Below, in pieces: positions 4,958 through 30,012 of a stretch of DNA of 30,012 bases. The DNA comes from Candidatus Brocadiia bacterium (GTDB lineage Bacteria; Planctomycetota; Brocadiia; CAIUPP01), in the NCBI GenBank assembly GCA_050015075.1, contig JBEKCB010000040.1, forward strand, positions 1 through 30,012, written 5' to 3'. A model generated the notes under the pieces. The model saw only the letters and a list, made by a program, of their open reading frames with translations. It was not told the origin of the DNA and searched no databases. Made by a program: the position numbers and the translations under genes. How positions within the stretch are numbered: position 1 is the first letter of the stretch; each line of letters begins with the position of its first letter.

Positions 4958-4996
4958 GCTTGTAGTGGCGCCGTCAGGCGCTAGTTCGTATGCCCT
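4958..4996. repeat. GTAG-type REP-like element, truncated copy
   Basis: CTTGTAGTGGCGCCGTCAGGCGCTAGTTCGTATGCCCT; matches the copies at 5082 and 24984 but lacks the right arm. Confidence 0.8.
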
Positions 4997-5081
4997 TCCT
5001 GCTTGGCGCACCGAACAGCGGAGCTGCCAAGAGCGAGAGTAGCCCGGGGCTGTGAAGAATGGGGCGCGCACCGCGAGCACG

Positions 5082-5142
5082 TCGCTCGTAGTGGCGCCGT
5101 CAGGCGCTAGTCCGTATGCCCTTACGGGCACACTACGAGCGA
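5082..5142. repeat. GTAG-type REP-like element, full copy, just downstream of recA
   Basis: TCGCTCGTAGTG GCGCCGTCAGGCGC TAGTCCGTA TGCCCTTACGGGCA CACTACGAGCGA; terminal IR enclosing two small hairpins. Confidence 0.85.
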
Positions 5143-5150
5143 GCAGGCCG

Positions 5151-6254
<1,104 letters not shown>

Positions 6255-27727: not shown

Positions 27728-27805
27728 CGGGGCGTAGCTCAGCTTGGCTAGAGCGCCTGGTTTGGGACCAGGAGGCCGGCGGTTCAAATCCGCCCGCCCC
27801 GACCA
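27728..27805 (+). tRNA. tRNA-Pro(TGG)
   Basis: CGGGGCG/CGCCCCG acceptor stem, CCTGG-TTTGGGA-CCAGG anticodon arm, GGTTCAAATCC T-loop, encoded CCA. Confidence 0.97.
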
Positions 27806-29529
27806 ACCCGACAGGTAGCTGCTGCAACGGCGGCTACCTGTTTGAATTTAATGACGCCCCGCTCGAAGACGTAGCTCCGAGGCCCTTCCTCTGCAGGGGC
27901 GAAGTAGAGGTCGATGGATTCAATCAACGTCTGATAGACCCGCTGCTTCAACTCCGCGCTGCCGCTGCGGATCATCTCGGACAGCTTCCGGACTTCCGCC
28001 ACGACCTTCTGAATCTGCCCCTCAACATCAGCGGCCTTCGGCACTTCCGCTGGCTGCGCCTGCCCCCTGAGGGCGTGGGCCTTCTGCGTCAGCCTGTCCA
28101 GCGTTGCCTTCGCGGCGGTGGCGGCGTGCTCGTCGGTGATGGTCAGGTAGCGCTCCGTGGCCATCTTGATCTGCCGCTCAAGTATCTCAAGCTCGCGTTT
28201 CTGGTCCGCAGCCTTGTCCGTCAGCCTGCCCAGCTGTCGCGCGGCGGTCTGGCCGATCCTGGCCGGCGGTGTCACCAAGATGCGGCGCCTGATGACTGAC
28301 TCAACATAGCGCTCAAGCGGCCGGTTCGGCATGGTCAGGGGCTTACACCCGGTCCGCCCGTAACTCTCGTACTTCCCACAGCGATAGTACACGTTGCTGA
28401 AGACTTTGCCGTCGTGCTTGCTGGTCGTGGTCTTCCCCCACATCGTCCCACCACAGTGACCGCAACGGACCAGGCCACTGAGGGCGTACCTGCTGCGGTG
28501 GCTGCTGCCGGACCGTCGGGTGACGTTCCGGGAGTTCAGCCGCGCCTGCACCTTGTCCCACACCTCCGGCTCGATGATACCGGGATGGGCACCCTCATAA
28601 ACCACCCACTTCTCCTCCGGGTTGCGCGTGATCCTGACCTCATAAGGCTCCATCTTGCCGGTCTTGCGGCTGAGGCGGGACCCCGGCTTGGGAGTTCCGT
28701 CGCCGCCGTTGACCCGGTGAAACTTCCCGCTTGAGCGCCGCCCATAGGCGATGCGGCCGACGTAGGCAGGGTTCTCAAGCATCGCCTAGATAGTGGTCGG
28801 TCCCCAGGGGTTGCCGTTGCGCGTACGAACTCCCCTATCGTTCAGTTCATAGGCCAGGGACTTGTAACCCCTGCGGGTGCTGGCGTACTCCGAAAAGAGC
28901 CACTGGACCGTCGGGACTTCCGTAGGCTGGGGCCGGAGTTCAACGTGCCCGCCCTGCCTGCGCGCCAGCGTGGCACCGCCTTCAAGCTCCCCCAGGATGT
29001 TCCGCTGCGCGTCGCATATCACGCGCTTGAACCCGAATGGCGCGTCGCCGCCTCCCCAGTGCCCATCGCTTGCGGTCTTCTTCATCCCGCCCAGCACGTC
29101 GGCGGACACCTTCTTCAGATAGGCGCGGTGCTGGATTTGCTCGATGGGCCTGAGGATTTCAGCGGTGTCGGGGTTGGCGTAGCGGTCCGATTCCATGACG
29201 GTGATAACCTCGACGCCGGCCATGCGCAGCTTGTGGCGATAGTAACCGACCTCGTCGTTGTCCATGCGGCCGAAGCGCGACACGTCGTAGCAGATGATGC
29301 AGTCGAAGTCCTTGCCATTCTCTGCCTTGGCGATCATCTCCTGGAAGCCGGGCCGGTGCGCCCCGCTGGCGCCGGAGATGCCGTCGTCCGTGTAGTAGCG
29401 CAGGATGGAGTAGCCGAGTTGTGCGGCGTGCTGCTCGATCACCTCGCGCTGCTTGTCGAGGGAAGCCTCCTGCTTGGTCGTCGAGCGCCGCAGGTAACCC
29501 ACTGCGACCTTACTCTTCGTGTTCTTCAT
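27784..29529 (-). pseudogene. Large serine recombinase (integrase), 581 codons, with one in-frame TAG at 28786-28788 (pseudogene or readthrough)
   Basis: GYLRRST catalytic Ser, DDGISGAS..RPGF, DVSRFGR, W..TTI*AMLENPAYVG recombinase domain, LSGLVRCGHCG...YYRC zinc ribbon, coiled coil. The two ORFs are in the same frame. Confidence 0.88.
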
Positions 29530-29765
29530 TGCGCCGTCCTCCCAGCACTCGGTGTAACCGCTTCCTCGACTGAAAATTCAAACATGCCGGATATATCTGA
29601 CGCAATATTTCCAGGGGCGCCGGGCAGTTCCCCACGCTGCCGCAGCGACTCGATGGCCAGTGCAACCAGTGCCTCAACCGCGTCCTGGGGCAGTTCCTCA
29701 TCAGCGCCGCCACCGACGACCTCCCATCGCTCAGGTTCAAGAACCCGCCCATCTCCGTCTGCCAT
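29526..29765 (-). CDS. Small acidic hypothetical protein coupled to the integrase
   Basis: GAGGTG RBS before ATG 29765; its TGA overlaps the integrase ATG (ATGA). Confidence 0.55.
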   Translation of the reverse strand: MADGDGRVLEPERWEVVGGGADEELPQDAVEALVALAIESLRQRGELPGAPGNIASDISGMFEFSVEEAVTPSAGRTAQ

Positions 29766-30012
29766 AGCACACCTCGGAGTCTGCGCCTTGATACTCGCTA
29801 CCCCCGGCTTTGCACTTCAGTGAAGCCCGGAGGCAGGTCGTTTTCAGGGTAGTTTCGGTCTGTCCGAGGAGGGGCCGACTATAAAGGCCGGGTGAAAACA
29901 CTCCGGGGCGTCGCGTAGATTTTTCATGTTCACGCCAGCAGGCGCGCCGAAAACCGTTCTGAAGCGCGGGGAAAACGCTACGCCGGTGACCCCCGTTGCG
30001 GGGGGGGGGGGG

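Follow-up and report, generated by a model that had tools for sequence, protein, structure and literature searches.

An amber codon in the large serine integrase of a tRNA-Pro(UGG) island, probably a recent nonsense mutation in a decaying element

A large serine integrase in a peat planctomycete-like metagenome-assembled genome (MAG) is interrupted by one in-frame TAG codon, and this codon lies within predicted RNA structure. The question raised by the locus is whether the stop has a function or is simply damage. A reading made earlier from the DNA letters alone (the sequence-only reading) offered three answers: a structure-dependent switch that limits the output of integrase, a deliberate split into two polypeptides, or a mutation templated by an imperfect palindrome that created the stop and grounded the element. 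The stretch analysed here, referred to as the window, is the entire contig C40 (30,012 nt) of a genome of 66 contigs (4.64 Mb, 64.7% GC). We conclude that the stop is very probably a recent and ordinary AAG>TAG nonsense mutation (Lys-248 to amber) which broke the integrase of a decaying island of ~9.5 kb at tRNA-Pro(UGG).

The interrupted integrase gene and the reality of its stop

The minus-strand mRNA reads ...ACT ATC TAG GCG ATG CTT GAG AAC..., as first described, and exactly one stop, the TAG at codon 248 (window 28788..28786), breaks a reading frame of 581 codons; the earlier observation that the gene has no further lesion also holds. Pfam searches with the read-through frame identified a Resolvase domain (PF00239, residues 9-158, E 8.3e-25), a Recombinase domain (PF07508, residues 202-334, E 4.1e-26) and a zinc ribbon (Zn_ribbon_recom, PF13408, residues 350-414, E 1.2e-13), with the single Recombinase match spanning the stop. 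In an alignment of the integrase with 17 distant homologues (25-35% identity to it), the catalytic motif Y12, R14 and S16 (Ser-16 being the nucleophile) is invariant in all 18 sequences, as are the zinc-ribbon residues C356, C359, C384 and C395. An AlphaFold model made for the intact allele (mean pLDDT 79.5) has long helices at residues 402-535, which correspond to the coiled-coil insertion of large serine recombinases.

Judged by its sequence, the gene would encode all of the parts that define a large serine recombinase: a catalytic serine domain, a Recombinase domain, a four-Cys zinc ribbon and a coiled coil. The domain order (Resolvase, Recombinase, zinc ribbon with coiled coil) is that of the integrases of phiC31, Bxb1, A118/LI, SPbeta and TP901-1 and of TnpX. 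In the PDB, the integrase matches TnpX, the SPbeta integrase, TP901-1 and phiC31 in sequence over their catalytic domains, and identity to any solved protein is confined to this domain. Unlike the phiC31/Bxb1-type integrases, the window gene overlaps a tRNA gene at its 3' end and has an interrupted frame. Large serine recombinases are single uninterrupted polypeptides, and the window copy, with TAG at codon 248, is not; it is a pseudogene of the family, of which a close relative at a metagenome locus (L012) has an intact allele. The nearest database relatives apart from L012 are 33-37% identical. Because an ATG lies two codons past the TAG, a mechanical list of open reading frames splits the integrase into pieces of 247 and 332 residues (Table 1). 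There is no sign that the 332-residue frame is translated separately, and the gene caller made only a 259-residue piece of it (P0094).

Table 1. Features of the integrase locus in the window (contig C40).
Feature	Position	Strand	Remarks
tRNA-Pro (UGG)	27728..27805	plus	last 22 nt overlap the integrase 3' end
GCCCCGACCA, tRNA 3' acceptor end	27796..27805	plus	likely recombination core (inferred)
Low-GC island, left part	27806..30012		continues over the poly-G tract into contig C35, from 53226 down to about 45898
Large serine recombinase (integrase) gene	29529..27784	minus	581 codons if read through; from Pfam and the reading frame
C-terminal ORF, 332 aa, from ATG codon 250	28782..27784	minus	second half of recombinase domain, zinc ribbon, coiled coil
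N-terminal ORF, 247 aa	29529..28786	minus	catalytic domain, long helix, first half of recombinase domain
Competing stem-loop (hairpin 2)	28729..28780	minus	7-bp outer stem GCUUGAG/CUCAAGC and inner CUGCCUA/UGGGCGG
10-bp inverted repeat, partner arm	28745..28754		mRNA GCAUCGCCUA; codes for part of R-I-A-Y
10-bp inverted repeat, arm holding TAG and next ATG	28779..28788		mRNA UAGGCGAUGC; 9 bp in L012
79-aa ORF	29526..29765	minus	overlaps the integrase start by 4 nt; region poorly conserved in L012
Poly-G run at contig end	30000..30012	plus	assembly break; C35 ends in complementary poly-C

A sequencing or assembly error that hides a sense codon would be another account of the TAG, since the source is a MAG and 480 nt separate the gene from a contig end broken in a homopolymer. 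This account can practically be dismissed. A scan of metagenome contigs for relatives of the integrase returned three loci, and two of these, on independent JGI contigs (L011, 3521 nt; L013, 30256 nt), have the same TAG and encode an identical protein. Words of the integrase stretch were found in 24 public peat or wetland runs, none of them RNA. For the four of these 24 that were compared (X4, X9, X11 and X13, peat runs from four studies), one Logan contig each (records 23, 26, 6 and 14, respectively) spans positions 28717-28817, TAG included, and shows 0 differences. Among the variants listed, the four runs have no second assembled allele in this interval, as the depth in the 28717-28817 bin is that of the single matching contig; assembled contigs drop rare variants and so leave room for a minority AAG allele within the same population. 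The known AAG allele assembles separately, with about 80 other differences. The possibility of an assembly error named by the sequence-only reading is therefore not borne out: two independent metagenome contigs and the contigs of the four runs carry TAG.

The TAG allele occurs in many peat samples from 2017 to 2025. A fixed neutral lesion would account for this wide occurrence, as would a stop that is tolerated or useful. In run X4, which may be the source sample, the island contig has a depth of 10.6 against 11.3-11.6 for the host flank. Contig depth is a crude measure, but these values agree with an integrated element carried by practically every cell of the strain.

The polarity of the change comes from L012, the third metagenome locus, where the same gene occupies the same tRNA-Pro(UGG) site, with a nucleotide identity of 95.4% (1666 of 1746 aligned positions, plus one 3-nt indel) and a protein identity of 97%. 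The gene runs uninterrupted there for 582 codons and has AAG (Lys) as codon 248. The corresponding column holds a sense residue in all 17 distant homologues (nine Arg, two His, two Asp and one each of Lys, Phe, Met and Ser). The AAG in L012 together with the sense residues in 17/17 homologues makes TAG the derived state, reached by one A>T transversion. The two alleles differ by 59.5 synonymous and 19.5 non-synonymous changes (Nei-Gojobori), giving a dN/dS of 0.093 overall, 0.078 for codons 1-247 and 0.113 from codon 249 to the end. Both halves, as the sequence-only reading had asked to see, have been under purifying selection, and this for almost all of the period that separates the alleles, which makes the stop recent. 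L012 is the sole close relative, and the conservation of the stop is thus judged from one comparison: a search limited to one genome per species gave 60 pattern matches and no relative, the best match among 41 related genomes was 35-37% identical, and close relatives turned up only in the metagenome scan.

The hairpins and the case for a functional stop

According to the sequence-only reading, a perfect 10-bp inverted repeat covers the TAG together with the ATG that follows it, and a stem-loop with an inner stem competes with this repeat. Both were recovered by a repeat search and by RNA folding. The 10-nt repeat (28745-28754/28779-28788; hairpin 1) is perfect with a spacer of 24 nt, and a perfect 7-nt repeat, GCTTGAG/CTCAAGC (28729-28735/28774-28780), starts 5 nt after the TAG. 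The hairpins compete, with a 53-nt piece of the RNA folding into hairpin 1 and a 68-nt piece into hairpin 2.

Neither structure is out of the ordinary in stability. The 131-nt region has a folding z of +1.17, with 180 of 200 dinucleotide-shuffled sequences folding at least as well, and the isolated hairpins have fold z values of -1.56, -0.09 and -1.32. The intact L012 allele forms both hairpins (hairpin 1, -18.0 kcal/mol compared with -18.8 kcal/mol in the window allele; hairpin 2, -23.9 kcal/mol in both, with an identical stem-loop), and the hairpins are therefore older than the stop. Six distant homologues were also compared, of which two are paralogues within this genome and four are loci of related genomes. 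In their matching 72 nt, perfect repeats reach a length of 4-7 bp at most, with z from -1.65 to +0.39, and none of the six has comparable hairpins at the equivalent place. Across the genome (4.64 Mb), perfect inverted repeats with loops of 3-40 nt number 923 with arms of at least 10 nt (0.2 per kb) and 2239 with arms of at least 9 nt. At this density about 0.35 perfect repeats of at least 10 nt are expected in a gene of 1.75 kb, and the presence of one is unremarkable. We found no sign of a regulatory signal, and both hairpins are incidental to the coding sequence, without a demonstrable role.

Programmed readthrough of UAG can be stimulated by downstream structure, as by the retroviral gag-pol pseudoknot. 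A switch of this kind, in which the hairpins tune termination at UAG or restart at AUG-250 such that a little full-length or C-terminal product is made, is suggested by the layout of the locus: the stop is inside one hairpin, the second hairpin follows within a few nucleotides as in the retroviral case, the AUG is two codons on, the gene has no other lesion and the TAG allele is widespread in peat samples. We nevertheless consider it to be very unlikely. The stop of a readthrough site is expected to be conserved, but the single close relative has a sense codon within the same hairpins and none of the 17 distant homologues has a stop. The structure, unlike that of gag-pol, is neither conserved (comparable structure is absent in 6/6 distant homologues) nor unusually stable (z of +1.17 to -1.56, no better than shuffled sequence, with the same folds in the AAG allele). 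A ribosome with UAG in its A site must moreover have melted hairpin 1 already, which also counts against programmed readthrough. No means of decoding the codon was found: none of the 47 tRNA genes called by ARAGORN in the whole genome (alongside two tmRNA calls) has a CUA anticodon, C35 holds no tRNA gene, and the PylS profile (TIGR02367) has 0 matches in the genome, which is 93.6% complete. The search for pylTS or a suppressor tRNA that had been proposed with the switch thus came back empty. TAG also serves commonly as an ordinary stop here: the 2519 ORFs with a length of at least 250 residues and a GC3 of at least 0.75 end in TGA (1439), TAG (658) or TAA (422), which agrees with the earlier view that genome-wide amber recoding is unlikely. 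The literature abstracts consulted had nothing specific on programmed stops in integrases. Natural readthrough of UAG or reinitiation at AUG-250 may still occur at a low level, as far as the sequence can tell.

A deliberate split into cooperating catalytic and DNA-binding polypeptides, the second of the earlier proposals, is extremely unlikely for reasons that partly overlap. It draws on the fact that both halves are open, separated by one codon before the ATG, and that both have a low dN/dS relative to L012; however, such a low ratio is expected from the long intact history that the two alleles share. The 17 aligned homologues (17/17) and L012 are all single chains. The cut also falls within one folded domain, residue 248 being in the middle of helix 244-252, the third helix of a three-helix unit in the recombinase domain (pLDDT 94-96 for this block in the AlphaFold model). 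A search for shorter proteins (E <= 1e-10) gave six matches, namely the window's own 259-residue C-terminal gene call, an 86%-identical C-terminal fragment on a contig of 1091 nt and four N-terminal fragments of other recombinases that end elsewhere; among these six, no family member is split at the position of codon 248. Neither the switch nor the split is supported, and an ordinary recent nonsense mutation is left as the preferred reading. It is essentially the outcome that the sequence-only reading had said would follow if homologues had a sense codon and no conserved structure.

Origin of the mutation at an imperfect palindrome

In L012 the inverted repeat is 9 bp long (AGGCGATGC/GCATCGCCT), with an A-A mismatch at the next position outward. 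The A>T change that makes the TAG also extends this repeat to 10 bp, the new base being complementary to the partner arm. There are 193 possible single-base nonsense changes in the L012 gene, and AAG>TAG is the only one that yields a perfect repeat of at least 9 or at least 10 bp (three of the 193 reach at least 8 bp). Out of 40000 random substitutions placed genome-wide, 101 created a perfect repeat of at least 10 bp or lengthened one to that size. Purely random mutation does not explain why the mutated base falls exactly at the edge of the repeat (1 of 193).

In the available text of PMC7202029, PMC13100816 and PMC8794818, template switching at imperfect inverted repeats is an established mutational mechanism that can homogenize and expand the arms. 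The stop could accordingly have been written by the sequence itself, if the nascent strand folded on the 9-bp quasipalindrome and copied one base from the partner arm, turning AAG into TAG. This proposal concerns how the mutation arose and is compatible with the preferred reading of an ordinary nonsense lesion. The imperfect repeat was present in the intact allele before the mutation, as it was in the E. coli reporters of quasipalindrome mutation in PMC7202029 (as far as that text was available), where the arms likewise became more complementary; the change is a transversion, and the new base is the one that the partner arm would template. Set against this, the statistic is post hoc, the repeat having been noticed first, and describes a single event. 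The change is confined to one base at the outermost position of the arm, with no multi-base signature, in a case known by comparison alone, whereas the classic quasipalindrome cases are interior corrections and multi-base changes. A mismatch inside the arm would be corrected more readily than a base at its edge: further copying of the partner flank would add changes that are not seen, as the next templated bases mismatch the flank, and the polymerase would have had to return to its normal template after one base, presumably with a terminal mismatch. By our own estimate, the prior for templated events among all substitutions is also low. We therefore regard a templated origin as possible but doubtful. 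Of the third proposal of the sequence-only reading, the part that stands is a stop-creating mutation, derived as AAG>TAG, that takes the repeat from 9 to 10 bp; a templated origin is a possibility, and the grounding of the element is probable.

The island and the meaning of the lesion

The 22-nt overlap with the tRNA-Pro gene encodes, on the other strand, the last residues and the stop codon of the integrase. GCCCCGACCA is the only block that is invariant across the left junction, the putative right junction on C35 and a remnant of the integrase 3' end on C35 (170-250), and it is the same in L012; its sole invariance among the junctions makes it the likely recombination core. L012 bridges the ends of C40 (30008) and C35 (53212), and the complementary poly-G and poly-C ends of the two contigs indicate that the assembly broke in the homopolymer. 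The 79-residue ORF upstream of the integrase has no family match.

On C35, the GC content is 0.54-0.62 from 53226 down to about 45850 and 0.64-0.69 beyond. A tRNA-3'-like sequence, GGTTCAAAC...GCCCCGACCA, is present at about 45862-45897, past a host GH1 gene, at the GC boundary and in the orientation of a right junction. This junction was located by eye and alignment; a BLAST search of this genome with a 30-letter loose-end consensus from a related strain gave no match above 17 nt, and a 25-nt pattern of the tRNA 3' end with up to three mismatches had no match in C35 40001-53226. A 37-nt partial copy of tRNA-Pro on C13 (100848-100884) and scraps resembling the integrase 3' end on C45 and at the start of C35 were rejected as junctions by position and composition, and are unexplained remnants. 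The 38 crude ORFs of C35 that were searched against Pfam represent mostly ordinary host metabolism outside the island. With an integrase at a tRNA gene, a partial copy of the tRNA 3' end at the far end and a deviant composition, the region has the features of a tRNA-inserted island, and its size looks to be ~9.5 kb.

The part of the island on C35 encodes a 767-residue Cas3, Cas5d and a scrap of Cas8c/Csd1 (profile positions 12-74 of 559), and these genes are a truncated type I-C cas operon. With cas3 and cas5d kept and cas8c/Csd1 reduced to a scrap, the island appears from its sequence to be decaying, and it looks degraded in more than one gene. Identity to L012 is 94.6% for the host lon gene next to the tRNA, 95.4% for the integrase and 95.4% for cas3. 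This equal divergence indicates that the island was already present in the common ancestor of both strains and has come down to them by vertical descent. Contigs of a ~93% related strain diverge from the window at 27806, whereas L012, at ~95%, carries the island. The same-genus genome G001 (91% complete) has lon and tRNA-Pro and no match to the integrase; it has two tandem tRNA-Pro genes, and the DNA downstream of them has no useful match to the window genome.

We propose that in this lineage a single A>T transversion converted Lys-248 (AAG) of the large serine integrase, at the 3' end of tRNA-Pro(UGG), to an amber TAG. The chain would break off midway along a helix of the DNA-binding recombinase domain, and a 247-residue fragment, missing the zinc ribbon, the coiled coil and half of the recombinase domain, would be the sole product expected in quantity. 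The integrase has most likely lost its activity and the island its mobility, a state that we infer, as integrases work at low copy number and slight readthrough is possible. Cryptic (grounded) prophages and genomic islands can carry pseudogenized integrases. The window copy resembles these in being next to a tRNA gene and most likely inactivated by a point lesion, in an island that stays while its cargo decays (here, cas8c). It differs from such integrases in that the lesion is a single, very recent nonsense codon in a constrained gene, and in that the enzyme is a serine rather than a tyrosine recombinase.

Three large serine recombinase genes are present in this genome, all ending inside tRNA genes. 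Integration at tRNA genes is usually linked to tyrosine integrases, and the abstracts consulted gave nothing specific on serine integrases at tRNA sites. The intact relatives may therefore interest collectors of serine integrases with new attachment sites.

For annotation, the gene is to be described as a large serine integrase pseudogene and the island as a fixed, decaying remnant, neither an active element nor a case of recoding. Beyond annotation the finding has little importance, apart from one neat mutational footnote. The AAG allele of L012 and the TAG allele of the window form a clean, polarized natural candidate for mutation by quasipalindrome extension. If a templated origin is true, Lys-248 would be a built-in hotspot at which a one-base extension of a 9-bp quasipalindrome, within the conserved helix of the recombinase domain, gives TAG. 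The integrase would then carry a sequence-encoded route to its own inactivation, and the pair would show, in nature and with known polarity, a mobile element grounded when a quasipalindrome was extended by a single base.

Cas genes, a dispersed repeat and the contig ends

The island carries a truncated type I-C cas operon with cas3 (767 aa) and cas5d (236 aa). Of cas8c/Csd1 only an N-terminal scrap is left, and other cas genes were not recognised. The reading frame of cas3 is uninterrupted both in G000, the Candidatus Brocadiia genome studied here, and in L012, a metagenome locus that holds a ~95%-identical relative of the island at the same tRNA-Pro site. Positions 4978-5181 of the metagenome contig L013, which lie within the contig of the window, correspond to a short dispersed repeat (~60-200 nt), and copies with 78-95% identity were found on at least 20 contigs.

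The window ends in a G13 run, and contig C35, which continues the island, ends in the complementary homopolymer C23. The Logan contig end is at most 7 letters from this homopolymer, and L012 has a C/G-rich but interrupted stretch at the matching place, with no such homopolymer. The run may be an artefact of sequencing or a homopolymer that has truly expanded.

Coordinates of the features discussed (C numbers are contigs of G000; L016 is a stretch of C35)
Feature	Location	Overlap with tRNA
Serine recombinase 1 (int)	window 27784-29529 (overlap 27784-27805)	22 nt, tRNA-Pro
Serine recombinase 2	C2:224919-226760	41 nt, tRNA-Met
Serine recombinase 3	C14:73755-75326	13 nt, tRNA-Ala
Putative right junction	C35 ~45862-45897 (= L016 5862-5897)	
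Truncated type I-C cas operon	C35:49585-52844 (= L016 9585-12844)	
Remnant	C35:147-225	
Remnant	C45:3558-3602	
Remnant	C13:100848-100884	
Dispersed repeat	window ~5084-5146	
79-aa ORF	window 29526-29765	
G13	window 30000-30012	
C23	C35:53204-53226	

Divergence from L012 around and within int

The region upstream of int (the large serine recombinase gene with an in-frame TAG at codon 248; window 29530-30012) aligns to L012 2980-3599 with 83% identity and 163 gap columns, while the genes that flank this region are ~95% identical to L012. A 79-aa ORF located here has no family match, and its conservation in L012 is not obvious. Within int itself, dS against L012 is 0.24 for codons 1-247 and 0.10-0.11 for codons 249 to the end, and is about twofold higher in the N-terminal half. 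Past recombination between alleles is one possible source of this contrast.

Recombinase genes, tRNA 3' ends and scattered remnants

G000 has three genes for large serine recombinases, and each terminates inside the 3' end of an opposite-strand tRNA gene. At four loci from relatives (27-44% identical), no tRNA was found within ~1.5 kb. The C-terminal tail of int, GRGGRI-stop, is encoded by the sequence of the tRNA-Pro 3' end, and in the homologue alignment the same tail is present in two distant int homologues (P0003 and P0006). The crossover may lie in GCCCCGACCA, a block at the tRNA 3' acceptor end that is shared by the int overlap with tRNA-Pro and the putative right junction on C35. If so, the host tRNA side would supply the final codons of int and its stop in the integrated state, and the excised form would encode a different, longer C-terminal tail.

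G000 has a single tRNA-Pro gene and the island, whereas G001, a genome of the same genus, has two tRNA-Pro(UGG) genes in tandem, ~310 nt apart and downstream of lon (contig C133, loci L017/L020). Three remnants are scattered in G000: two, on C35 and C45, are copies of the int 3' end fused to the acceptor end of the tRNA, with identities of 81% and 96%, and one, on C13, is a partial, 37-nt copy of the tRNA-Pro 3' end followed by a terminator-like hairpin. These remnants may be scars left by earlier integrations of elements of the same family.
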